Below are positions 3 through 13,540 of a DNA stretch of 64,000 bases, one piece after another (positions within the stretch are counted from its first letter, which is position 1; every line of letters begins with the position of its first letter). Below the pieces are notes generated by a model. It searched no databases and was not told the DNA's origin. It saw nothing but the letters and a program-made list of their open reading frames with translations. The position numbers and the translations under genes were made by a program. This DNA is from Candidatus Bipolaricaulota bacterium (GTDB lineage: Bacteria; Bipolaricaulota; Bipolaricaulia; RBG-16-55-9; DRXL01), in the NCBI GenBank assembly GCA_025060395.1, contig JANXCC010000002.1, forward strand, positions 102,234-166,233. Reading direction: 5' to 3'.

Positions 3-1829
3 GAAGGGAACGTCATCACTTCGACAGCCGGGCCGGCGATCCAAAGCTCCGGTGGAGCCGATCTGCGCAATCTGAGGATTCTCAACAACCAATTGAGAAG
101 CACGGTAGCCAACGGGCTGGGCTTCGCGCACGCGGGCGCCCTAGAGAATTCCGTCATCTCCGAGAACATTTTGGAGACCAACGGCAGCGCGGGGATCGGC
201 TTTGGCGGCGCGGTCACTCGTGTCCGACGCCTCTCCATCAGCAACAACCGCATCAACACCAACGCTGCCGACGGGGTTGTCTTTATGAACTCCAGCAGCG
301 TCGAAGAGCTAGAGCTGTCGCGCAACACGATTCGCGGCAACACCGTCGGGGTGCAGTTCAGCAACGCCGGCGGCGTCAGCGAGGTCGAGTTCTCCGGCAA
401 CACGATCTCGGCGAGTACGGCCGGCCCAAACGTGCTCTTTGCCAACAACGGCTTTGTCGAGGACGTCTCGTTTGAAGGGGACGAGCTGAGCAATACGACA
501 GCGATGGGCGCTCCCAGCGTGCTCATTGCGAACACCGGCGTCGCCGAGCGGATTCGGTTCCGCAACGTCTTGATCGAGCGCAATCGCGGGCATGGCATCT
601 GGGTACGGAACGCCGGGCGCTTGCGCGAACTCTCTATTCTCGGCGGGCGCATTCGTAATAACGCCGGGCACAACGTCTTCATCGAGCACAACGCGCCTGG
701 AACAGACTTTGGCGTCTCAGAAGTTCTCTTCGAGGGCGTGACCATCGAGCAAGCCGACGACAACGGGATTCGCATCCTCACCACCACCGCCGAGATCGGC
801 CCGCTGCGCTTCCAGAACGTGCTCTTAGCTAAAAACGGCGCTTTGGGCATTTGTATACGCACCAACACGGGCACGATGGGCGATATTCTCGTCGAAGGCG
901 CAACGATCCGAGAGAGCCAGGGCGTCCCTGGCACCACCGCGTGCGATCTCGCTCCTCAAGCCGAAGGCTCCGGCATCGAAATCCTCACGCTGGGCAACAC
1001 CCCCATCCGCAACATCACGGTGCGCGGCAGCACCTTCACCAACAACGGAGGCTTTGGGCTGCGCCTGCACGCCTTGGGCAACGACCGAGTGACCAATATC
1101 GCGATTCAGAACAATCGTTTTGAGCAGAACGGCACCCGCGCGGCCATCGGCCAAGGCTCCGGCGTCAGCCTGCGCGGCGACATCGTCGAGGAGATCGTCG
1201 TCAATCCCACCGTGGCCAACGACAACAACGATCACGGGATCGAGATCTCCGCGTCGCGCGATATTCTCAACGTCACGATCTCCGGCGGAGAATTCTCCAA
1301 CAACGACCGCAATCGCGACGGCGTCGGCGCGGGGATCTCCGTGAGCGCTAACGAAGATTTATTGGGCTTGCGCATCAGCGACTGCAAGCTCCTGAACAAC
1401 ACCAAGGGCGTGCGCGTCCAGGCCGACATCGCGCGGGATCATCGCGTCACCAACTGCGAGATTGCGAATAACACCCAAGCCGGCGTTGAAGCCTCGATTC
1501 CCAACGGCACGAACCTAGACGCGAGCAACAACTACTGGGGCAGCCCCGATGGGCCGAGCGCGCCCAACGGCTGCGCGGGCCAAGTCGTTTGTACGCCGTT
1601 CTTGACGGCGCCGCCGGCTGGCCCGACACCACCGACACCGCCCACGCCACCGACGCCACCGAGTGGAGACTTTGCTGCGTGTGCCGCGGGTGCCGACAAC
1701 CGAATAGACGACATCGAGATGCTGGGGATCATAGATGCTTGGATCAAAGCACGAGACTATCACGGCTGCGGGGTGCCCACAGACGTGGACGTCCTGCAAG
1801 CGTTGGATCGCTGGATACGCGGCACGTGA
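3..1829 (+). CDS. Secreted right-handed parallel beta-helix repeat protein with Pro/Thr linker and C-terminal dockerin-like tandem repeat; the gene starts outside the window.
   Basis: The frame of ORF 93..1829 is open back to the window edge. It shows repeated N-N-x-I / SGNTI-type beta-helix turns, a PTPPTPPTPPTPP linker at about 1614..1655, and a C-terminal pair of IDAWIK-type repeats at about 1662..1826 shared with 4398..5864. Confidence 0.8.
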   Translation, partial: EGNVITSTAGPAIQSSGGADLRNLRILNNQLRSTVANGLGFAHAGALENSVISENILETNGSAGIGFGGAVTRVRRLSISNNRINTNAADGVVFMNSSSVEELELSRNTIRGNTVGVQFSNAGGVSEVEFSGNTISASTAGPNVLFANNGFVEDVSFEGDELSNTTAMGAPSVLIANTGVAERIRFRNVLIERNRGHGIWVRNAGRLRELSILGGRIRNNAGHNVFIEHNAPGTDFGVSEVLFEGVTIEQADDNGIRILTTTAEIGPLRFQNVLLAKNGALGICIRTNTGTMGDILVEGATIRESQGVPGTTACDLAPQAEGSGIEILTLGNTPIRNITVRGSTFTNNGGFGLRLHALGNDRVTNIAIQNNRFEQNGTRAAIGQGSGVSLRGDIVEEIVVNPTVANDNNDHGIEISASRDILNVTISGGEFSNNDRNRDGVGAGISVSANEDLLGLRISDCKLLNNTKGVRVQADIARDHRVTNCEIANNTQAGVEASIPNGTNLDASNNYWGSPDGPSAPNGCAGQVVCTPFLTAPPAGPTPPTPPTPPTPPSGDFAACAAGADNRIDDIEMLGIIDAWIKARDYHGCGVPTDVDVLQALDRWIRGT

Positions 1830-1951: not shown

Positions 1952-2338
1952 GTGGGCAAGAAGAGCCAGCCGAAGAAGAAGCGCGCGCCAGGCCTACAGC
2001 AGACACCTTTGCTTGCTGTAGGGCCGGAGCGCATCAGCACGCTCAAAGATTTCTTGCGCTGGCTTGTGCTGCGCGAGCAGCTTGAAATTCAGCAAAATAC
2101 CCCCGAAGCGCAGCGCTTCGCCCATCGCTGGAATATCTTCCCCTACGAAGGCGCAATCTTTGTGGGAATCGTTACAGGGCTCTCAGGACAAGAGATCTTG
2201 AATCGCTTTCCGGAGCTCGATCTGCCCGTGAGCCTGCCCGAAAGCGAAGAACTCCCTGCAGAGCTGCGTGAGCTGCCGTATAAGCCGAATATCTTTTACT
2301 TTGGCCCCTTCAGCCAAGAGTACGACAACCTAGTCTAG
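1952..2338 (+). CDS. Hypothetical protein with a Lys-rich N-terminus and a GTG start.
   Basis: A 128-codon ORF sits in an otherwise empty intergenic gap. No recognisable domain is present and no strong RBS was seen. Confidence 0.3.
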   Translation: MGKKSQPKKKRAPGLQQTPLLAVGPERISTLKDFLRWLVLREQLEIQQNTPEAQRFAHRWNIFPYEGAIFVGIVTGLSGQEILNRFPELDLPVSLPESEELPAELRELPYKPNIFYFGPFSQEYDNLV

Positions 2339-2352
2339 AGGGGTGAGCATCG

Positions 2353-3258
2353 ATGACCAAGAGACGGCTTTTCTCCTTAGCGCTCATAGCATTGCTGGGG
2401 GCTCTGGTGGGCTTTGGCGGGGTGCTGCAGAGCTGCCAGCCTCCCAACAGAGCGCCCCTAGCGCGATTCGTCTTCAGTCCCAAGGAGCCCAAGGTCAACG
2501 AGAGCGTGACGTTCGACGGCTCAGCCTCGTACGATCCCGACGGCAAGATCATTAGCTATTTTTGGGACTTCGGCGACGGCCAGACCGCCCAAGGAGCGAC
2601 GACGACACACGCCTTCAAAAAAGCTGGAGAGTTCGACGTCATCTTGCAAGTGACCGACGACCGTGGGGCGAACACGACATTGGCAAAGACCGTGCGCGTC
2701 GTGCTGCCCAATCAGGCGCCGGTCGCGGTTTTCACCGTCGAGCCGCTGGAGCCCACAGTCAACCAAGAGATCACGTTTGACGCGTCCGTGTCTGCAGACC
2801 CCGATGGAACTATTGTCTCGTACAGCTGGGACTTCGGCGATCAGACGACCGGCCAGGGCAAGATCGTCACGCACACGTATACAGCCGCGGGCACCTACAG
2901 AGTCACGCTCACGGTCACGGACGACAAAGGCGCGACGTCCTCAGCATTTCAGAATCTAGTCATCACAGAGCAGTCATTGCTGCCCAATCAGCCTCCACTC
3001 GTGACGTTCAGCTTCACGCCGGTAAACCCTACAGTTAATCAGCCCGTAGCATTCGACGCCTCGGGTTCGACCGACGACGGCGAGATTATCAGTTATCTCT
3101 GGGACTTCGGCGACGGCCAGACCGGCCAGGGCAAGACCGTCACGCACACGTATAAGACCGCGGGGACGTTTACCGTGAAGCTCACGCTCACCGATGACCG
3201 CGGCGCGAAGAACTCGCTGACTCGCACCATCACGGTCGCCGAAGCCGCAAAGCCATGA
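2353..3258 (+). CDS. Exported PKD-repeat protein with three PKD domains, possibly a lipoprotein.
   Basis: It has a signal peptide and three roughly 85-aa repeats, each with FDxSxSxDPDGxIxSYxWDFGDG...HTY...G.Y.V.L.VTDD. The DNA is repetitive accordingly. Confidence 0.8.
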   Translation: MTKRRLFSLALIALLGALVGFGGVLQSCQPPNRAPLARFVFSPKEPKVNESVTFDGSASYDPDGKIISYFWDFGDGQTAQGATTTHAFKKAGEFDVILQVTDDRGANTTLAKTVRVVLPNQAPVAVFTVEPLEPTVNQEITFDASVSADPDGTIVSYSWDFGDQTTGQGKIVTHTYTAAGTYRVTLTVTDDKGATSSAFQNLVITEQSLLPNQPPLVTFSFTPVNPTVNQPVAFDASGSTDDGEIISYLWDFGDGQTGQGKTVTHTYKTAGTFTVKLTLTDDRGAKNSLTRTITVAEAAKP

Positions 3259-3272
3259 TAGAATAGCCGGGA

Positions 3273-4346
3273 ATGAGCACCAGAGTCCTTTGGGTAGTGC
3301 TAGCGCTGGTGAGCGCTAGCGTCTTGGGTGGAGCAGCGCAGACGACGCTCACGCTCACGGGCGCGCTCCCCTTTGATCTCAGTGGCGTTGGGAAGCCCAG
3401 CCTGGAAGGGAGTTGGCAGTGGCAGCGTGCTCAGTGGACGGTCAGCGCGAGCGCCACGCTCACCCCCACGAGCGTCGAGGGCGCCAAACTCAGCCTGAGC
3501 TATCAGATCTCGCGGCTGCAAGCGAGCGCGACCGCGACGCTCTCTCCTCAAGGGCTGACGAGCGCCGAGGCCAAGCTCAAGGCTGAACTCCCCAGCTTGA
3601 TCGCGGCAGAAAACACGCTGAGCTTTGGGAGGCGCGGCTTCAAAGGCGGAAAAATCGCGATCAAGCTCGGCCCCAGTGCCCTCAACGTCACGGGCAGTGC
3701 CCAGCTCACTCCCGAAGGGATCACGGCTCCTACAGGGACTCTGAACTTCTCGCTCTCCCGAGCGCGCGGCGAGCTCAGCGGGACGACGACGTTCTCGGCA
3801 CAGGGATTCAAGCACCAGTCGCTCTCCATCGTGGGGCATCTTAGCGACGATTGGACTCTTACAATGACGTCGCTCATCACACCAGCGGGGTTTCACTCGG
3901 AGACGTTCGAGCTGGCGACGACCCTGTGTGATGGACTGCTCTCGCTCTCGTTCAATGCCACGGTTGAGGGCCGCGGGATCACCAGCGAGAGCCTCTCGCT
4001 CGATCTGAGGCTCGAGGGACTCTTCGTCCAAGCTTCGATAGAGTTCTCAGGACTGGAGCTGAGCAGCTTGCAGCTTATGGCCAACGGCTTTCTCGGCGAT
4101 TTCTCGGTCGATGCGCTTCTCAGGGGCAGCTTTGAAGGCATTCAGTTCGCTACGCTCACGGCAAGCGGAGAGCTGTTCGGCTTCAGCGTGAGCGCCAGCG
4201 TCGATATAAGTATCTTTGGGCTAGATAATCTCTCGCTCAGTCTCAGCCGTGCTCTCGGGCGCTGGACGTTCAGCGCCGAGGGCAGCTTCGGCAGCGATGG
4301 CTTCCACGGCGGCACGCTCAAAGTAAGCTATAGCCTCAAGATTTGA
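3273..4346 (+). CDS. Secreted beta-rich protein, a candidate outer-membrane beta-barrel.
   Basis: It has a signal peptide and a Ser/Thr/Leu/Gly-rich alternating pattern. The C-terminus ...KVSYSLKI has alternating hydrophobics, resembling a beta-signal. There is no homology anchor. Confidence 0.65.
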   Translation: MSTRVLWVVLALVSASVLGGAAQTTLTLTGALPFDLSGVGKPSLEGSWQWQRAQWTVSASATLTPTSVEGAKLSLSYQISRLQASATATLSPQGLTSAEAKLKAELPSLIAAENTLSFGRRGFKGGKIAIKLGPSALNVTGSAQLTPEGITAPTGTLNFSLSRARGELSGTTTFSAQGFKHQSLSIVGHLSDDWTLTMTSLITPAGFHSETFELATTLCDGLLSLSFNATVEGRGITSESLSLDLRLEGLFVQASIEFSGLELSSLQLMANGFLGDFSVDALLRGSFEGIQFATLTASGELFGFSVSASVDISIFGLDNLSLSLSRALGRWTFSAEGSFGSDGFHGGTLKVSYSLKI

Positions 4347-4397
4347 CAGCCTTCCCCGCATAGCATAAGATAGAACTCAGCGCTCACAGGGAGGCTT

Positions 4398-5864
4398 ATG
4401 ATCTCTATGCGTTACGCCATAATTGTGCTTAGTCTTTTGTTCAGCGTAGGTTTTGTTGGCTCTCAGCTTGGCTACGCGCAGACGATCTCGATCGAGAGCG
4501 ACCAGCTCTCGCTAGGAGCGGCGGTCTGGCTGCCTATTGCGATCAACGCTGCTCCTGATGGGATACATCGTTACGTCCTCAGCGTCGTGGTTGATGTCCC
4601 TGAGATCGCGCACATTGAGGACGTGCGCTTCCCTGAACCAGTGCGGGATTTTGCGAGCTTTCAAATCGCTCCCGATGGTAACTCCGTGCAGATCGCGGTG
4701 CGCGACGAGAACGACGTGATCACCTCTGGGGCGCAGCAGACCCTTCTAGCTGAAGTGAAGCTGCGCGGGACGTTCGGTGGCCGCACAGGGGTTACGCTCG
4801 CTGTCCGCGAGATCGTCAATGATCGCTTGAACGCTTTTAACGTTGCGGTCGCGAACGGGCAGCTCACCGTGGCAGCCGCGCCGAGCGCCCCGACGCTCGT
4901 CGTCGGCTTCGATGGCGTCTTAGTGGGCGACACGGTGCGGGTGCCGATTATCCTCACGAGCACGGTTGGAGGTGTGCAGAGCTATCGTGCGCGGGTACGC
5001 CTAGAACGGCGCGACGTCGCAACGTTCATCGGGGCGGAGTTCCCCTTCTTCGCTGATCAGCAAGACGTCTCGATCACGCCCGATGGCAATGAAATCACCG
5101 TAGGCGCGCGCGATGGGGTCAACGCCGTCCAAGCTGGGGCCAAAGGGATACTCTTGGCGTGGCTGGTCCTGCGCGGCGATCTCCCCGATGGTAGCCCGCT
5201 GCGCCTGCTCAGCAACAATATCACTGAAGATAATAACAACAGCGGGCCGCTGCCGAGCAAGGATGGGCTGTTGACAGTCATTCGCTTAGAAAATTTGCCC
5301 CCGGAATTCTTCGGGCCGCAGCCGCGTCCCCAAGAGATCCTCGGAGATCGCTCGCCATCGATTCAGATCACGATCAGCGACGACAAGAACGCGGTGCTCT
5401 CCGAGACGATTCAGCTAACTCTCCAAGACGAAGTCCAGACATTACAATTTGGCTGGCGGAGCCCTGGGGCCTCGTGGGATCCGACGGCGCGTCTCTTTAC
5501 GGTCAATCTCAAGGCGATTGGAGTACAGCTCAGCGGCGATGTGCGGGCGCGCATCCGGGCGCGCGACCGCCAGGGCGCTGAAGGGCGCTTCGAATGGCGC
5601 TTCACCGTCCCACGGGGCGAGATGCCGCCTCCGCCCCCAGGAAAGACTCTCGAAGATCTCCTTGATGCAGACAGAGATAATCGTCTGAACGATCTTGAAA
5701 TCCTGAGAGCATTAGATGCGTGGATCAAGGGAGCGGAGCTCGCCCCTGGGCTCAAGATCGACGACCTGAAGATGCTCGCGCTCATCGACGCGTGGATCAA
5801 GGGCACCCCACTGCGTCCAACAGCACCCTTGATCGTTCAGGAAACGCTCCCTGTGCCCTTCTAA
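4398..5864 (+). CDS. Secreted scaffoldin-like protein with two tandem cohesin-like beta-sandwich modules and a C-terminal dockerin-like tandem repeat.
   Basis: It has a signal peptide and two internal roughly 130-aa repeats (about 4485..4877 and 4884..5273). These carry motifs such as VGDTVRVPIIL...GGVQSY, resembling the cohesin V-P-V...G-I strands. The C-terminal segment at 5646..5813 is DADRDNRLNDLEILRALDAWIKG followed by IDDLKMLALIDAWIKG. Confidence 0.75.
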   Translation: MISMRYAIIVLSLLFSVGFVGSQLGYAQTISIESDQLSLGAAVWLPIAINAAPDGIHRYVLSVVVDVPEIAHIEDVRFPEPVRDFASFQIAPDGNSVQIAVRDENDVITSGAQQTLLAEVKLRGTFGGRTGVTLAVREIVNDRLNAFNVAVANGQLTVAAAPSAPTLVVGFDGVLVGDTVRVPIILTSTVGGVQSYRARVRLERRDVATFIGAEFPFFADQQDVSITPDGNEITVGARDGVNAVQAGAKGILLAWLVLRGDLPDGSPLRLLSNNITEDNNNSGPLPSKDGLLTVIRLENLPPEFFGPQPRPQEILGDRSPSIQITISDDKNAVLSETIQLTLQDEVQTLQFGWRSPGASWDPTARLFTVNLKAIGVQLSGDVRARIRARDRQGAEGRFEWRFTVPRGEMPPPPPGKTLEDLLDADRDNRLNDLEILRALDAWIKGAELAPGLKIDDLKMLALIDAWIKGTPLRPTAPLIVQETLPVPF

Positions 5865-5915
5865 GGGATTTGCCTTGAGGCCCCTGCAAGGAGTATTATC
5901 ACAGCAGGGGTCTCT

Positions 5916-7547
5916 ATGAGAGTTCTTGTGCTGTGCGGGCTGCTCTTGGTAGGAACGGGGGGCTGTGCCCCACCACCCAATCAGCCGCCTATCGCGGCGA
6001 TCACGGCCGCGCCCATCAGCGGCGGCGTGCCCTTGACGGTGCAGTTCGACGGTTCTGGATCGCGCGATCCCGACGGAAAAATTATTGAGTACTCCTGGGA
6101 TTTTGGCGATGGCACTACAGCTTTTGGAGCGAAAGTCTCGCATACTTACACGCAGGCCGGGCTCTACCCCGTCATTCTCACGGTTAAGGACGACCGCGGC
6201 TCGACCGCCGTCGCCACGGTCATCATCAAAGTCGGCAACCCGCCTCCTACAGCGACCTTTACCGCATCGGTGACTAATGGCTTTGCTCCGCTCACCGTTA
6301 CGTTTGACGCTTCAGCGTCGAGCGATCCGGCATCGCGCTGGGCGCCGCAGCGCATCGTGCGTCACGAGTGGGACTTCGGTGACGGCACGGGCGCTATCGG
6401 CTCGCAAGTCTCGCACACCTACACGCGCGCTGGCGTCTATACTGTTACCCTGCGGGTCTTTGACGAGGACGGCGCAAGCGACCGCGCGCAGCAGACTATC
6501 CGTGTCTTGGACTTCTCGTTCCCACTCTCGCTCCCTGTGGGGCTCGGCCCGACGGCATTAGCGGTGGGAGACTTCGACGCTAACGGGCTCGACGACATCG
6601 CTGTCGCCAACTTCGAGAGCAGATCTGTTACCGTGGTGCTGAGCCGCGACGCCGGGGATTTTCGCATTCAAACGCCGCTTCTACTCACGTATCGTCCGAC
6701 CTCCCTGGTTGGTGGCGATTTCAACCAGGACAGAAAGCTCGATCTGATCGTGACGAACTTCGACGAAGGGCGTCTGTCCCTCTTCCAGGGTGACGGCACA
6801 GGACAGCTTACAGCCGTGCGAGAGATCATTGTCGGCGCCGGGCCGTATGCGCTCATCGGAGAGGATTTCAACGGCGATCGGATCCTTGATATAGCCGTTG
6901 CCAACGCGACGCTCGGACGCGTGACGACGCTGCTAGGGGATGGCACAGGAGACTTCTCCAAGGCTCAGGAGATCACGGTGGGCGGTTGGCCTAGTGCCCT
7001 GGCTCCTGGGGATTTCGACGAAGACGATCGCCTGGATCTCGCCGTGGTGAACTTCTTCGACGATACTGTGACGGTTCTCTTGGGCAACGGCGATGGGACT
7101 TTTGACGCCTTGATGCCCTTTCCCGCAGGCAAGGAGCCAATCGGCATAGCTGAGGGCGATCTTAACGGTGACGGCTTTGCTGATCTCGCTATTGCCGCTT
7201 CGGAGGAGAACTCGTTGAAGCTCTTCTTCGGACAAGGGACGGGGCGCTTTCGCGAGGGGCCAACGCTCTTTGTCGGCCCGGAGCCCCGTGCCGTCGATTT
7301 GGCCGATCTCGATCGCGATGGCGCTCTCGATCTCATCGCGGCGAGCATCCAGAGCAACGAGCTGAAGATCGTTCTTGGCCGAGGCGACGGCTCTTTTGGG
7401 ATGAGCAAGATCTGGCCTGTAGGCGCCGGACCTATAGCGATTGCCACGGGGCGCTTTGTAAGAAGCGAATTTGAAGATATAGCTATCGCGCAGTTCATCA
7501 GCGGGCGCCTGGCTATTCTGCTCAACGAGATGGCACGCTCCCCTTAA
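5916..7547 (+). CDS. Lipoprotein with two PKD domains followed by a seven-bladed FG-GAP (integrin-alpha-like) beta-propeller.
   Basis: It has a signal peptide with a Cys lipobox-like site. Two PKD repeats carry the WDFGDG...HTY motif. Seven repeats of GDF[DN]xDGxxD[LI]A[VI]xN follow. Confidence 0.85.
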   Translation: MRVLVLCGLLLVGTGGCAPPPNQPPIAAITAAPISGGVPLTVQFDGSGSRDPDGKIIEYSWDFGDGTTAFGAKVSHTYTQAGLYPVILTVKDDRGSTAVATVIIKVGNPPPTATFTASVTNGFAPLTVTFDASASSDPASRWAPQRIVRHEWDFGDGTGAIGSQVSHTYTRAGVYTVTLRVFDEDGASDRAQQTIRVLDFSFPLSLPVGLGPTALAVGDFDANGLDDIAVANFESRSVTVVLSRDAGDFRIQTPLLLTYRPTSLVGGDFNQDRKLDLIVTNFDEGRLSLFQGDGTGQLTAVREIIVGAGPYALIGEDFNGDRILDIAVANATLGRVTTLLGDGTGDFSKAQEITVGGWPSALAPGDFDEDDRLDLAVVNFFDDTVTVLLGNGDGTFDALMPFPAGKEPIGIAEGDLNGDGFADLAIAASEENSLKLFFGQGTGRFREGPTLFVGPEPRAVDLADLDRDGALDLIAASIQSNELKIVLGRGDGSFGMSKIWPVGAGPIAIATGRFVRSEFEDIAIAQFISGRLAILLNEMARSP

Positions 7548-7592
7548 AGGGCTATTGCATCCAACGAAATTTTTCGCTATCGTAGGAGTACC

Positions 7593-9701
7593 ATGCAGAA
7601 AGCTCATCTGCTCGTTGCATTGGGCGTTCTTGGGGCTTTCTTGATTGGATCAGCTCACTCGAGCTTATCTGGCGATTGGCCCGCCCCGCCAAAGCCCTCA
7701 GTCTATCATCCGAAGGTCGAGACTGCACTACTGTTAGGAAGTGCGCGAGTTAGCGGGTTGATGGGGTCAGACCCCCGGCACCTTACTGAACTGGTGAACT
7801 ACACGGTGATTCTTGAGAGTGAGCGCCCTCTGGACGAAGCGCTCTTAGCGCGCTTTGGCGCTCATCTCGAATCCCAAGCGGGAAATCTCTATCGCGTGCG
7901 CGTTCCTCGGGAGAACCTTCGGGCGCTCGTTGAGGGCGTGCCGGGGATCTCGTTCGTTCGCCGTCCGCGAACCCTGATCGCTTTGGGCTCACGGGCGAGC
8001 GAAGGGGTCGTGCCCACGGGAGCACTCCTGTTGCAAGGTTCTGGCTTTCGCGGCCAGAACGTTAAGATCGCTGTGATAGATCTGGGGTTCGCGCAGCTGA
8101 GCCGCGCTAAGAAGTCTCAAGTGATCAATCCCGACGTTATCGTGGACGAGCACGACTACACCGACACCGGCTTGGAGACGGGAACTGCTCACGGCACAGG
8201 CGTCGCCGAGATCATTCACACCATGGCGCCCCAGGCTTGGCTCTATCTCAAGAAGATCGCTGATGAGATTGATCTGGCTAATGCGGTTGAGGACGCCATC
8301 GCCCAGGGCGTGCAGATCATTAACTATTCCGTGGGGGTAGCTAACGCGAACTTCGGCGACGGTACGGGCTTTGTCGCCGAGCTTGCCGATCGAGCGCGCG
8401 CTCACGGGATCTTCTGGGTCAATGCCGCAGGCAATCACGCCCAGAGCCATTGGATGGGCCTTTTCAGCGATAGAGACTATGATGGCTGGCTCGAATTCGC
8501 CCCCGGCAGAGAAGAGCTCCTCGTAAAAGCTGACTTCCCCGGCTCGATTGAGTTATATTTGACGTGGGATGACTGGCCGCGCACCGCCCAAGACTTCGAT
8601 CTCTTTCTCTATGACGCCCACGGGCGTCTGGTCGCAAGCTCCCAGAACTATCAGCTGGGCTACGAAGAACCAACTGAACAGATCGAATACATAGCGTGGG
8701 CACCGGGGACGTATCGCGTGCGGGTGCTCGCCCGACACGTTTCCAAAACCCCCATCCGAGTGAAGCTCTTCAATCTCAGCCAACAGACCCTCGATCCGTA
8801 TGTCCCTGAGGGGAGCATTCTCACGCCTGCCGACGCACGCGGGGCCTTTGCCGTGGGAGCGATCAACGTACGCCATTGGAAGACCGGCCCCCAGGAGCCG
8901 TTCAGCTCCCAAGGGCCAACGAGCGATGGGCGCATCAAGCCTGATATCATGGGCCCAGACGGCGTCTCGAGCTTTGCGCTCACGTACTTTTCGGGGACGT
9001 CCGCGTCGGCACCCCATGTCGCCGGAGCTGCGGCGCTCCTGCTCTCACAGCATCCAGCGTGGACCGCTGATCAGCTCCAAAGCACCCTGGAAGCCCAAGC
9101 GATCGATATGGGCATCCCGGGGAAAGATACTATATACGGTGCGGGCAGGCTCGACCTCTCGCTCGGGCTGGTCCAAGCGCGGCGCACGATCTCCCCTCAA
9201 AAAGCACGACCCGGCGATCTCGTCACGGTGACTATCGTAGCGACGATGCCGCTGGGGATGTTTGGGGGTCTGGAGCTGCGCGACATGCCCCCGTGGGCTG
9301 TGGCTCCTCTCTCGTTTACGTGGCCGATTGTGCATCCTGGGGAGACAAGATCGTTCACCTATGAGCTTCGGGTGCCGCAGACGGCTCGGCCTGGGGTCTA
9401 TCGCTGGTCGGGCACAGTCAATAATATTGCGCTCACGGGTGACGATACGATCACGGTAGAGCATCCCCGGGCAAGACTTGTGGATCGGCGAGGCGCCTTG
9501 CGCGTGCCATTCTCGCAATCTGTTGAGATGGCTCGACTGCGCATCTACGATCTGAAAGGGTCTCTGCTCTTTGAAGGCCTCAGCCCAAAAGCCCTCGACT
9601 GGCGTCCCAGCGCTAACGGCGTCTATCTCTATGTTCTTGAGATAGTGCAAGACGGACGGGTCATTGAGCGAAAGCTTGGCAAATGGGTTGTTCTCGAATA
9701 G
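7593..9701 (+). CDS. Secreted subtilisin-like serine peptidase (S8 family) with a C-terminal Por/T9SS-type sorting-domain-like module.
   Basis: It has a signal peptide and the catalytic triad motifs IAVIDLGF (Asp), HGTGVAEI (His) and GTSASAPHVAGAAAL (Ser). The last roughly 75 aa (LRIYDLKGSLL...GVYLYVLEIV...KLGKWVVLE) fit the FlgD-Ig/Por_Secre_tail pattern. Confidence 0.9.
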   Translation: MQKAHLLVALGVLGAFLIGSAHSSLSGDWPAPPKPSVYHPKVETALLLGSARVSGLMGSDPRHLTELVNYTVILESERPLDEALLARFGAHLESQAGNLYRVRVPRENLRALVEGVPGISFVRRPRTLIALGSRASEGVVPTGALLLQGSGFRGQNVKIAVIDLGFAQLSRAKKSQVINPDVIVDEHDYTDTGLETGTAHGTGVAEIIHTMAPQAWLYLKKIADEIDLANAVEDAIAQGVQIINYSVGVANANFGDGTGFVAELADRARAHGIFWVNAAGNHAQSHWMGLFSDRDYDGWLEFAPGREELLVKADFPGSIELYLTWDDWPRTAQDFDLFLYDAHGRLVASSQNYQLGYEEPTEQIEYIAWAPGTYRVRVLARHVSKTPIRVKLFNLSQQTLDPYVPEGSILTPADARGAFAVGAINVRHWKTGPQEPFSSQGPTSDGRIKPDIMGPDGVSSFALTYFSGTSASAPHVAGAAALLLSQHPAWTADQLQSTLEAQAIDMGIPGKDTIYGAGRLDLSLGLVQARRTISPQKARPGDLVTVTIVATMPLGMFGGLELRDMPPWAVAPLSFTWPIVHPGETRSFTYELRVPQTARPGVYRWSGTVNNIALTGDDTITVEHPRARLVDRRGALRVPFSQSVEMARLRIYDLKGSLLFEGLSPKALDWRPSANGVYLYVLEIVQDGRVIERKLGKWVVLE

Positions 9702-9704
9702 ACT

Positions 9705-10523
9705 ATGACGATCCCAGAGCTTCAGCGGAAGGCCAAGGAGCTGCGGCGTATGGTCTTAGAGATGGTAGCGCAGGCGGGCTCGGGGCATCCTGGGGGAGCG
9801 CTCAGCTCGGCTGACCTGCTCACGGTGCTCTATTATAAATATCTGCGCGTGCGGCCGGAGGAGCCGCGCTGGCCTGAGCGTGATCGCTTCGTGCTCAGCA
9901 ATGGCCATGTCTGTCCCATACTCTATGCGATCTTGGCTGATCGGGGCTTCTTTCCCAAGGAAGAGCTCAAGCATCTCCGAAAGCTCGGCTCGATTCTTCA
10001 GGGCCATCCCAGCTTGGCGTTCAAGACCCCGGGGATAGAGCATTCGGGAGGCTCGTTGGGATTGGGGCTGTCGGTATCGGTGGGTATGGCGTTGGCGGCC
10101 AAGCTCGAGAGGAAAGACTATAAAATTTACTGTCTCATCAGCGACGGCGAATGCCAAGAGGGTCAGACGTGGGAGGCCGCGATGGCCGCTGCCCACTACC
10201 AATTAGACAATCTCTGTGCGATGCTCGACCGGAATTTTACCCAGATCGATGGGCGCACCGAAGAGATCATGAAGATCGAGCCCATCGCTGAGAGATGGCG
10301 CACGTTCGGCTGGAATACTCTCGAGATTGACGGACACAACTACGAGCAGATTATCTCAGCGTTCGAGCAGTTCTTAAAAAACCAGGGCACAGGGCGCCCG
10401 ACGATGATCGTCGCTCGGACTGTGATTGGAAAAGGCGTCTCGTTCATGGAAGGGGACTATCACTGGCATCACGGTGCGCCCACGCCCCAGCAGCTTGAGC
10501 AAGCTCTCACAGAGTTGGTTTAA
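9705..10523 (+). CDS. Transketolase N-terminal (thiamine-diphosphate-binding) subunit, lacking an adjacent C-terminal subunit.
   Basis: GSGHPGGALSSADLL, GHxCPILYA and ISDGECQEG are transketolase N-terminal hallmarks. It is 272 aa, which is split-subunit size. The next gene is convergent. Confidence 0.88.
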   Translation: MTIPELQRKAKELRRMVLEMVAQAGSGHPGGALSSADLLTVLYYKYLRVRPEEPRWPERDRFVLSNGHVCPILYAILADRGFFPKEELKHLRKLGSILQGHPSLAFKTPGIEHSGGSLGLGLSVSVGMALAAKLERKDYKIYCLISDGECQEGQTWEAAMAAAHYQLDNLCAMLDRNFTQIDGRTEEIMKIEPIAERWRTFGWNTLEIDGHNYEQIISAFEQFLKNQGTGRPTMIVARTVIGKGVSFMEGDYHWHHGAPTPQQLEQALTELV

Positions 10524-10524
10524 G

Positions 10525-11871
10525 TTATCTGCGGCTGATCATACAAACCCCTGGCCCTGTGATGATCTCAAAGCTTCCCGCAGTGTCTTGGACAGTTACG
10601 ATAGTATTGCGAAAACGTCCAAGTACCAATTCAGGGAATTCCCCGATGAGGATCACCCTTCCCGTCTCATTGTGCGCTTGGGTGCAGATGATCATCTCGG
10701 AGTCGTCGCCGGCATCGCCAGCCCGCACAATGAACGTATCGTTCCCGCCACCACCAATGAGAACATCTGAATCTAAGCCACCATCAATGATATCGTTGCC
10801 GGTGCCACCGTCGAGGGTATCATTGCCCTCGTTGCCCCGCAGCATATCGTTGCCAGAACCGCCGTACAGCTCGTCATCGTCCGCTCCACCAAGGAGAACA
10901 TCCCGGCCAAAGCCGCCTTGCAACAGGTCATCCCCCTTATTGCCCTCGAGATGATCGTTGCCAGTGCCCCCGTCAATGACGTCATTGTCATCCTCACCAT
11001 AGAGGGTGTCGTTCCCCGATTCGCCGTAGATGGTGTCATTACCTTTTCTCCCGTAGATAGTATCCCGGCCGGTAGTGCGCCAGCCGCCAAAACCGTCATC
11101 ACCGTAGATTTGGTCATCGTCATCACTGCCTATAATGAAGTCGTTTCCACACCGCGATGACGAACAGGCATTAGGCCCATCATCAGATACGCCGTTGCCG
11201 TCACCACGAATGATCGGTTCTTCGCATCTCTGAATGATATTGTCTTGCGAAGTTCCTTCACACCCCTCGGGGGGGAGAGTGGGGCGTGCCGTAAACGTGG
11301 CCGTGACGGACTTGTTGGCGTCCATAGTGACCGTGCAGGTGCCCCGACCACTGCAAGCTCCGCTCCAGCCTCTGAAAGTTGAGCCGGAGTCCGCAGTAGC
11401 TGTCAAAGTGACGGTAGTGGGAGGAGTAGTGGCAGCATAGCTCGCTGTGCACGCAGTGCCGCAATTGATCTTTCCGTCATTGCTGGTTACGGTGCCGCTG
11501 CCGGTGCCAGCTTTGGTCACGGTGAGAGTAAAGGCTCGCGTGAAAGTTGCGGTGACTGACTTGTTAGCATTCATAACGACCGTACAGGTAAGGGCTGTAC
11601 CGCTGCAGTCTCCGCCCCAACCCCCGAAGGTTGACCCTGGACTGGGTGTCGCCGTCAGCGTCACTGTGGTATTGAGGGAGAATTGGGCCGAGCAGGCGGT
11701 GCCACAGTTGATCCCCGCGGGGCTGCTGGTGACTGTGCCACTTCCTGTGCCGGTCTTCGTCACCGTCAGCGTAACGAGCACTTGAGAGACCACTGAGCTA
11801 GTGTTGAGCAAGAGAGCCAGTGCCGTACATCCAACCAGTACCCAGAGCCTCCTCCAATATCTAGCTGCCAT
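10525..11871 (-). CDS. Secreted calcium-binding protein with two divergent InlB-type B-repeats followed by RTX (hemolysin-type GGxGxDxUx) repeats.
   Basis: A signal peptide is present and the RBS is GGAGG. Two roughly 80-aa repeats (GSGTVTS..INCGTAC...TLTAT...GW.G.CSG) are followed by at least ten nonapeptide GxGNDxL/I repeats. Confidence 0.85.
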   Translation of the reverse strand: MAARYWRRLWVLVGCTALALLLNTSSVVSQVLVTLTVTKTGTGSGTVTSSPAGINCGTACSAQFSLNTTVTLTATPSPGSTFGGWGGDCSGTALTCTVVMNANKSVTATFTRAFTLTVTKAGTGSGTVTSNDGKINCGTACTASYAATTPPTTVTLTATADSGSTFRGWSGACSGRGTCTVTMDANKSVTATFTARPTLPPEGCEGTSQDNIIQRCEEPIIRGDGNGVSDDGPNACSSSRCGNDFIIGSDDDDQIYGDDGFGGWRTTGRDTIYGRKGNDTIYGESGNDTLYGEDDNDVIDGGTGNDHLEGNKGDDLLQGGFGRDVLLGGADDDELYGGSGNDMLRGNEGNDTLDGGTGNDIIDGGLDSDVLIGGGGNDTFIVRAGDAGDDSEMIICTQAHNETGRVILIGEFPELVLGRFRNTIVTVQDTAGSFEIITGPGVCMISRR

Positions 11872-12271: not shown

Positions 12272-13540
12272 ATGCACCTGACACGACGCGCGTTCCTTCG
12301 TGCGGCTGCTGGAACAATCTACACGCTGACCATAAGCTGGGCTGCGCAAGCACAGGCCCAGACAAGCGATTGGCCCATGTTCCGCCGCGATCTCTTCCGT
12401 ACGGGGCGAGCCGTCAAAACGAGCAAGATAACGCTTCCCAAGGAGCGCTGGAGCGCCTTCACGCGCGGCTTAGTCGAATCATCGGCAGCCGTAGGCGATA
12501 TCGATGGCGATAGCATTATAGAAGTCGTCGTCGGCTCGTATGATGGGGGACTCTATGCCTATCAAGGGCGCACGGGCATTCTCAAATGGCGCTATGAAAC
12601 AAAAGGCTGGGTCTACTCCTCCCCAGCGATCGCCGATGCCGACGGTGACGGACGCCTCGAAGTTGCCGTCGGTTCCCAAGACAAGAGCTTTGCGCTGGTG
12701 GACGGGCGCACCGGGCGACCCAAATGGTCTTTTCTCACCGGAGACGGCATTCTCTCTTCGCCCGCGATCGCTGACATCGACGGGGATGGAAGATCTGAAG
12801 TCGTTGTAGGATCGGAGCGCGTCTATGCGTTTGACGGGCGTACCGGCTCGGTGAGATGGAAGTTCTTACCCGAGTTTCCTGCGCGCTCCTCGCCCGCTAT
12901 CGCAGATATAGACGGCGACGGCAAACTCGAGATCGTTATCGGTTCGTTGGACGGGAGGCTCTACGCGCTGGACGGGCGCACGGGTGTGGCTCAGTGGGCC
13001 TTCGACACCGGTGGTCCTGTCGAGTCGTCCCCAGCGATTGGGGATCTCGATGGCGACGGCACACTCGAGGTCACGGTGGGCTCGAGCAAGCGCGGCGTCT
13101 TTTGTGTCGATGGGCGCAGGGGGCGACTCCGATGGTTCTTTGAGGCCAGCCGCGAGCGTATCCCCTCGTCCCCAGCAATTGGAGATCTCGACGGCGATGG
13201 GAAGCTCGAAGTCGCCATCGGAACTAACGATCATCGAGTGCTCTCCTTAGGAGGCTCAGATGGCAAGCTGAAATGGAGCTTTCTCACCAACGATCTTGTC
13301 GAGTCCTCCCCAGCGATCGCCGACATTGACGGCGATGGGAGGCTTGAAGTCTTGGTCGGCTCGCATGATGGCCATCTCTATTGTTTGGATGGGCGCACCG
13401 GGGCGCGCAAGTGGGCCTATCGTCCTAAGGCTGCCGCGCAGTTCTTCTCGTCGCCGACGCTCGCCGATCTTGACGGCGATGGGCTTTTAGAGATTATCAT
13501 CGGGAACAACAACAGCGGGCTTTATGTCCTAGGCGCCTGA
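12272..13540 (+). CDS. Tat-exported PQQ-like / FG-GAP beta-propeller repeat protein.
   Basis: It has a twin-arginine signal (RRAFLRAAAG). About eight repeats each carry G.L.A.DGRTG..KW plus IADIDGDG..E..VGS. Confidence 0.8.
   Translation: MHLTRRAFLRAAAGTIYTLTISWAAQAQAQTSDWPMFRRDLFRTGRAVKTSKITLPKERWSAFTRGLVESSAAVGDIDGDSIIEVVVGSYDGGLYAYQGRTGILKWRYETKGWVYSSPAIADADGDGRLEVAVGSQDKSFALVDGRTGRPKWSFLTGDGILSSPAIADIDGDGRSEVVVGSERVYAFDGRTGSVRWKFLPEFPARSSPAIADIDGDGKLEIVIGSLDGRLYALDGRTGVAQWAFDTGGPVESSPAIGDLDGDGTLEVTVGSSKRGVFCVDGRRGRLRWFFEASRERIPSSPAIGDLDGDGKLEVAIGTNDHRVLSLGGSDGKLKWSFLTNDLVESSPAIADIDGDGRLEVLVGSHDGHLYCLDGRTGARKWAYRPKAAAQFFSSPTLADLDGDGLLEIIIGNNNSGLYVLGA

Follow-up and report, generated by a model that had tools for sequence, protein, structure and literature searches.

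Cohesin–dockerin pairs are the standard high-affinity parts from which extracellular protein assemblies and designer scaffolds are built, and their roles outside cellulosomes are, to our knowledge, still largely unknown. The occurrence of cohesin and dockerin modules outside cellulosomes is well documented, including in proteins of anaerobic methanotrophic (ANME) archaea and of haloarchaea (PMC9012536). ANME archaea possess non-cellulosomal proteins that combine a dockerin with up to five cohesins, and binding has been shown for archaeal cohesin–dockerin pairs (PMC9012536, citing Peer et al. 2009 and Haimovitz et al. 2008). The present analysis concerns a 64 kb stretch of DNA (64,000 nucleotides, hereafter the window; contig JANXCC010000002.1 of assembly GCA_025060395.1, positions 102,234 to 166,233 of the forward strand) from a Candidatus Bipolaricaulota bacterium, in which a gene at 4398..5864 (+) encodes a 488-residue secreted protein, referred to below as the scaffold protein. 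Its domain order is a signal peptide, two divergent cohesin-fold modules, a bacterial immunoglobulin (Ig)-like spacer, a poly-proline linker and a 53-residue loop-helix tail. With a probability of roughly one half, this is a secreted, non-cellulosomal, scaffoldin-like protein whose cohesins dock a lineage-specific tail.

A sequence-only reading of this DNA had placed two tandem cohesin-like modules at 4485-5273, which corresponds to residues 30-292 of the open reading frame (ORF), and every peptide that it quoted is present in the translation. The repeats, each of about 134 residues, can be aligned with one another over 131 residues with one gap and 27% identity (BLASTP E=1e-12); as judged from this alignment, the internal duplication is real and far exceeds what chance would give. 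Both repeats are recovered by a profile of 29 remote modules that excludes the window sequences, at residues 27-164 with 109.7 bits (independent E-value 3.6e-33) and at residues 164-297 with 70.8 bits (independent E-value 3.8e-21), with boundaries slightly wider than those first proposed. Based on these results and on the structural and profile comparisons below, module 1 was assigned to residues 28-164 (4479..4889, +) and module 2 to residues 164-297 (4887..5288, +).

The AlphaFold2 (AF2) model of module 1, computed from the module-family alignment A3 with no templates, has a predicted local distance difference test score (pLDDT) of 97.2 and a predicted template-modelling score of 0.89, and shows a nine-strand pattern whose strand order fits the nine-strand cohesin jelly roll. 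In a Foldseek search of the PDB with this model, the top 50 structures are all cohesins rather than unrelated Ig-like folds or folds like those of carbohydrate-binding modules (CBMs), with probability 1.00, template-modelling (TM) scores of 0.65-0.82 and E-values down to 6e-10; they include 2ccl_A (E 6e-10, TM 0.80), 1aoh, 1anu and 1ohz, and the Archaeoglobus fulgidus cohesin 2xdh has the highest identity (24%) among the listed structural matches. Searched against 177,635 PDB sequences, the A3 profile gave nine matches at E<=10, and all nine (5lxv, 6kg8, 6kgc, 2xdh, 4ums, 5m2o, 3ul4, 5aoz and 4dh2; E 0.007-1.1) are cohesins, colinear at the first and last strands. In the PDB, the module profiles match cohesins almost exclusively. 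For the module-2 family profile, too, the best PDB match is a cohesin (4ums_A; E=0.02, colinear over positions 1-130), and hhalign joins module 2 to the module-1 family with a probability of 100%; its AF2 model is of low confidence, and its assignment as a cohesin is made through homology to module 1 together with the 4ums_A match. A full-length model from a shallow alignment of 23 sequences rendered the modules poorly (mean pLDDT 61), and the fold search based on it brought up generic multi-Ig adhesins and was uninformative.

A wider search connects the modules to annotated cohesins. The close-family profile (A1) was searched against 1.84 billion cluster representatives, of which 801 match some part of the scaffold protein, mostly the module, at E<=1e-3; most of the best 150 of these 801 match the module of about 135 residues only. 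Pfam assigned Cohesin to 7 and Dockerin_1 to 16 of 91 such proteins, and when module-only segments were scanned instead, 12 of 31 (29 of the 31 being from remote relatives) matched Cohesin, with a best E-value of 2.6e-7 and no other family close. A word-indexed homologue search returned 13 matches with the module profile and five with the tail profile. The window's own modules are linked to Pfam Cohesin only transitively, because it is the relatives that match: neither the window protein nor isolated module 1 matches Cohesin (PF00963) at E<=1.

The possibility that the repeats are generic Ig- or CBM-like β-sandwiches with a chance likeness to cohesins draws on the lack of any family match at E<=1 when the whole scaffold protein was scanned against Pfam and NCBIfam, and on the marginal E-values (0.007 to 1) of the PDB sequence-profile matches. 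The top 50 structural matches, all of them cohesins (probability 1.00, TM 0.7-0.8), the restriction of all nine weak profile matches to cohesins among 177,635 sequences, and the Pfam Cohesin matches of the relatives run counter to it, and it is regarded as effectively refuted. The cohesin-like reading of the repeats is thus borne out by the AF2 model and Foldseek matches of module 1, the PDB profiles of both modules and the 12 Pfam matches, and these support the assignment of both repeats to the cohesin fold superfamily as divergent members that lie below the reach of the Pfam model. In the preferred reading, they would act as sockets for a dockerin-type partner.

The candidate for that partner is the tail type that the scaffold protein itself carries at residues 417-469 (5646..5804, +), a duplicated loop-helix element of 53 residues recognised from the sequence, the AF2 model and family alignment A4. 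Its two repeats, DADRDNRLNDLEILRALDAWIKG and ELAPGLKIDDLKMLALIDAWIKG, are identical at 9 of 23 positions, all of them in the helix, and in the AF2 model the helices span residues 432-443 and 456-468 (pLDDT 83-89) and both end in DAWIKG. Repeat 1 contains a canonical EF-hand calcium loop, D423-x-D-x-D-N-x-L-x-x-x-E434 (5664..5699, +): DADRDNRLNDLE, at residues 423-434, conforms to the 12-residue EF-hand pattern D-x-[DN]-x-[DNS]-[GN]-x-[ILV]-x-x-x-E and is followed by a helix. D423, D427, N428, R429, L430, D432 and E434 are invariant in 23 homologues, and the calcium ligands D423, D425, D427 and E434 are found in repeat 1 only. The tail probably binds calcium.

The position of the tail is the first reason to consider it as a dockerin counterpart. 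At least 35 of the 150 listed representative relatives carry the same cohesin-like module together with a canonical pair of C-terminal dockerin motifs, and the tail of the window protein occupies the position of these canonical dockerins. In Bipolaricaulota proteins, a tail with the WIxG signature is found at that dockerin position in at least three architectures. The second reason is its mobility. The tail is present on at least 13 other protein clusters that lack cohesin modules; Pfam domains on the scanned tail-bearing proteins include cupredoxin, FecR, PKD, MG2, astacin peptidase and a NosD-like β-helix, and in P0037 a cohesin-like module and a CARDB domain precede the tail. The 1359-residue NosD-like protein P0046 has two tails, one internal and one C-terminal, and the 272-residue protein P0152 has two in tandem; because these proteins carry two copies, the tail appears to be a folded module rather than a terminal sorting signal. 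The third reason is the lineage of the carriers. The named tail carriers belong to Bipolaricaulota/Acetothermia, and a genome scan with a narrow tail sub-alignment found eight loci in metagenome-assembled genomes (MAGs) labelled as Bipolaricaulota (four), Fraserbacteria (two), Thermotogae (one) and Caldarchaeum (one). In one of the MAGs, with locus-tag prefix K6T71, a scaffold homologue co-occurs with a distinct protein that bears the tail. Position, mobility and the lineage of the carriers together argue for a functional equivalence of the tail to a dockerin.

The window itself holds a second carrier. An ORF at 3..1826 (+), whose N-terminus is cut by the window edge, encodes a Pfam Beta_helix protein in which a PTPPTPPTPP linker is followed by a WI(K/R)G tail of the same type at the C-terminus (1644..1826, +; A1 profile positions 408-468, independent E-value 1.5e-06, and motif scan), and it lies 2.5 kb upstream of the scaffold gene. 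The β-helix gene is not conserved beside the scaffold gene in related contigs.

Several results weigh against docking of this tail by the cohesin modules, in addition to the silence of PF00963 on the window's own modules. Sixteen tails scanned against Pfam gave no match to Dockerin_1 (PF00404) even at E<=10, and only weak EF-hand models were found (EF-hand_7 best, E=0.0033). The tail profile matched only EF-hand proteins in the PDB (ALG-2 and similar, E>=0.15) and no dockerin, and hhalign of the tail with the dockerins of the relatives gave a probability of 2.1%, limited to a 16-column EF loop; as a control, profile A5, built from 22 canonical dockerin motif segments of the relatives, recovers solved dockerins as well as EF-hand proteins. 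The second calcium loop (ELAPGLKIDDLK, in repeat 2) is degenerate and has lost its ligands, and the tail of the upstream β-helix protein lacks the full DxDxD motif. No tail was found when the conserved cluster neighbours of the scaffold gene, including PKD lipoproteins and an S8 subtilase, were scanned with the tail-bearing profile, and docking therefore does not explain the conserved cluster. Tail-only genes in other genomes have no adjoining cohesin genes.

With Pfam, the PDB profile and hhalign all negative, the tail was rejected on sequence grounds as a recognisable dockerin. The earlier description of it as dockerin-like stands for its layout, namely a duplicated loop-helix with an EF loop, placed C-terminally after a proline linker at the dockerin position of the relatives, but not for sequence homology. 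The evidence thus partly supports the tail as dockerin-like in layout, and by homology it is not demonstrably so.

These negative results lend themselves to a rival account, in which the cohesin modules are real and do not bind the tail, and the tail is a calcium-dependent module for envelope anchoring or oligomerisation; the cohesins would then bind some other protein, perhaps the neighbouring PKD, FG-GAP or subtilase products, or a glycan, or act as a stalk. Besides the failure of the tail in all dockerin tests, it can be said for this account that the presence of a single C-terminal module on secreted proteins of many unrelated kinds is as compatible with an anchor as with a dockerin, that the Pfam scan revealed no other recognisable anchor on the scaffold protein, and that the gene lies in a conserved cluster with tail-less lipoproteins and a tail-less secreted β-rich protein. 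Some haloarchaeal relatives are, moreover, single modules on proteins named in UniRef as PGF-CTERM sorting domain-containing, which resembles surface-layer decoration. On the other hand, the remote relatives place a true dockerin exactly at the position of the tail, the window yielded no alternative module as a candidate ligand of the cohesins, and there are internal and tandem copies of the tail, which sets it apart from a terminal sorting signal. An anchoring or oligomerising tail is the main rival reading and is considered less likely than docking.

Under the preferred reading, in which the cohesins dock the tail, the following assembly can be proposed. The cohesin modules would serve as protein-docking sockets, and the WI(K/R)G tail would be the dockerin equivalent of the lineage, either a very divergent dockerin or an analogous F-hand module, stabilised by calcium. 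The partners would be tail-bearing proteins of the β-helix/NosD-like, astacin peptidase, cupredoxin, FecR-like, PKD and CARDB types. Since the scaffold protein has two cohesin modules and tail-bearing proteins are many, each scaffold could hold up to two of them, and since it carries its own tail, it could chain onto another copy or self-associate. The outcome may be multi-protein assemblies in the extracellular space or at the cell surface. The binding of the tail to the cohesin modules, the stoichiometry and the localisation in this scheme are what we infer. More tentatively still, the WI(K/R)G tail may represent a previously unrecognised dockerin class that, together with a divergent cohesin subfamily largely overlooked by current Pfam models, forms a lineage-specific non-cellulosomal system in Bipolaricaulota (Acetothermia), which would bring together peptidases, cupredoxins and FecR-like, PKD and β-helix proteins outside the cell.

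The sequence-only reading had gone further and regarded the protein as an adaptor scaffoldin. In its classical form, the protein would belong to a cellulosome-like polysaccharide-degrading complex in which the cohesins recruit dockerin-bearing glycoside hydrolases and the protein's own dockerin plugs into an anchoring scaffoldin. The cohesin-cohesin-Ig-linker-tail architecture invites this interpretation, as does the tail-bearing right-handed β-helix protein upstream, since β-helix domains can be polysaccharide lyases or hydrolases. Against it, neither a canonical dockerin nor a second cohesin-module protein was found in the 64 kb window or in 11 related loci (130 kb), no SLH or sortase anchor protein was seen, and no glycoside-hydrolase context was found among the cluster genes scanned. 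The tail-bearing proteins that were found are of the cupredoxin, FecR, PKD, astacin and NosD-like types and are not glycoside hydrolases, and the tail is not a dockerin by sequence. The classical arrangement is therefore very improbable, and the adaptor-scaffoldin architecture is not demonstrated, with no anchoring scaffoldin or canonical dockerin in the window or the 11 loci. As for the claim that cohesins and a dockerin are united in one polypeptide, the cohesins are present, and in place of the dockerin stands a dockerin-like tail that is not homologous to it. The only candidates for canonical dockerins in the window were trivial calcium-loop matches in an FG-GAP protein, which were discarded.

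With regard to the remaining parts of the scaffold protein, about 25 homologues with 62-100% identity are known, and all of the named ones come from Ca. Bipolaricaulota MAGs. An alternative ATG at 4407 would give a protein of 485 residues, which is the length in the public MAG annotation (the identical NCBI homologue P0001). The close-family profile A1 found no match among PDB sequences. The N-terminus, MISMRYAIIVLSLLFSVGFVGSQLGYA|QT, combines a basic n-region with a hydrophobic h-region and a small-x-small site, and reads as a Sec signal peptide of residues 1-27 (4398..4478, +) with predicted cleavage at GYA|QT; it is kept in 23 homologues, in which A27, Q28 and T29 are invariant, and residues 2-21 form a helix in the AF2 model. 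Minus-strand ORFs inside the gene (4661..4963 and 5057..5281) were set aside: they have no family support, and it is the plus frame whose protein sequence is conserved among 25 homologues. A strong sigma-70-like promoter match, TTGACA-17-TAAGAT (10/12 positions; 4343..4371, +), was found by consensus scan and is a pattern match only; it ends 27 nt 5' of the scaffold ORF, and a weaker match lies at 5870..5899, before the next gene.

Between the modules and the tail, a bacterial Ig-like (BIg) β-sandwich domain is predicted at residues 298-404 (5289..5609, +; AF2 pLDDT 75-90). Its profile matches the Ig domains of LapA-type adhesin 6xi3 (E 1e-4) and of SraP 4m03, and its relatives have weak Pfam matches to Big_5, Big_7, Big_13 and HYR. 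The proline-rich linker that follows, PRGEMPPPPPGK, spans residues 405-416 (5610..5645, +), and its poly-proline character is kept in the family. Beyond the tail, alignment A1 reveals a variable C-terminal extension at residues 470-488 (5805..5861, +) that ends in P-x-P-F; most close homologues have a variable extension of 15-20 residues at this place, usually ending in P-x-P-[YF]-COOH, and tail-only proteins lack it.

The scaffold gene lies in a same-strand cluster (1952..10523, +), and its gene order persists in the homologous loci L001-L003 and L012, at identities as low as 62%. The cluster begins with a small ORF, a protein with three PKD domains (lipobox LQSC), a 357-residue secreted protein and the scaffold, and continues with a PKD-PKD-FG-GAP protein (lipobox TGGC), an S8 subtilase and a transketolase N-subunit. 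The 357-residue protein (3273..4346, +), which is always encoded directly upstream of the scaffold gene, is rich in β-strands and has a repetitive "S..G..L" pattern; it has no family match except a sub-threshold one to the PelB C-terminal β-barrel (E=0.006), and it could be an outer-membrane barrel or anchor. No plus-strand terminator-like site was found between the cluster genes from 1952 to 9701, and the sole plus-strand match, at 9928..9943, lies inside the transketolase gene. In the contig of a homologue with 64% identity (L013), a 1172-residue gene product of the LptF/LptG family is encoded immediately upstream (4118..7636, -), which hints at an outer membrane with lipopolysaccharide in the lineage and is relevant to the destination of the scaffold protein.

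The region downstream of the cluster is dense in secreted calcium-binding repeat proteins. A protein with RTX (HemolysinCabind) and InlB-B repeats is encoded at 10525..11871 (-) and an FG-GAP/β-propeller protein at 12272..13540 (+), and at the corresponding place related loci encode a HicAB toxin-antitoxin pair along with RTX proteins, of which there are two or three. Neither Rfam (gathering threshold) nor searches for tRNA and tmRNA genes gave a match anywhere in the window, whose G+C content is about 0.55-0.61 throughout.

The wider meaning of these results depends in part on the partner of the cohesins. A large cohesin-like family escapes standard annotation, since most of those checked among the 801 cluster representatives matched at E<=1e-3 have no Pfam call, and tandem cohesins are carried by an uncultured, often thermophilic phylum in which a different small calcium-loop module, common to many secreted proteins, stands in for the canonical dockerin. 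If the tail binds cohesins, it would provide a new orthogonal and possibly thermostable docking pair as well as a handle on the organisation of the extracellular proteome of Bipolaricaulota. If it does not, the scaffold would be an ordinary non-cellulosomal cohesin protein with an uncharacterised C-terminal module.

Compared with type I cellulosomal cohesins, such as those of Clostridium thermocellum CipA (1ANU/1AOH; complex 1OHZ/2CCL), the modules described here share the nine-strand β jelly roll of about 140 residues, with TM scores of 0.78-0.82, an rmsd (root-mean-square deviation) of 2.2-4 Å and a Foldseek probability of 1.00 for module 1, and they are likewise arranged in tandem within a secreted protein. 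Unlike type I cohesins, they show only 10-17% identity to them and fall below Pfam Cohesin detection, and no cellulolytic context, CBM or canonical dockerin partner was found here. Non-cellulosomal archaeal cohesins come closer: the A. fulgidus cohesin 2XDH is the nearest in identity among the listed structural matches, the closest sequence relatives beyond Bipolaricaulota seem to be archaeal (those with a name come from Haloplanus and Natrinema only), and in many of them the same module is accompanied by a C-terminal dockerin. In contrast to the archaeal systems, the scaffold protein carries, instead of a canonical dockerin, a WI(K/R)G-helix tail in which just one EF loop is intact, and it comes from a bacterium, a member of the candidate phylum Bipolaricaulota.

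The tail, for its part, is comparable with type I dockerins (PF00404) in its size of about 55-60 residues, its C-terminal place after a proline-rich linker, its internally duplicated loop-helix, its first loop, which forms a 12-residue EF-hand-type calcium site, and its occurrence on many different secreted carriers. It differs from them in having no homology beyond the EF loop (hhalign 2.1%), in a second loop without ligands, and in the conserved (I/L)D-x-W-I-(K/R/E)-G signature of its helices, which the canonical dockerin segments in alignment A5 do not have. EF-hands such as those of ALG-2/PDCD6 and calmodulin, to which the tail has its only PDB and Pfam matches, all of them sub-threshold, share with it the loop D-x-D-x-D-N-x-L-x-x-x-E followed by a helix; unlike them, the tail has no helix-loop-helix pair with two intact loops, and it is extracellular and appended C-terminally. 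As far as its cohesins are concerned, the protein is thus a new, divergent representative of a known kind, and the novelty lies in the replacement of the dockerin by a lineage-specific tail of EF loop and WIxG helices.

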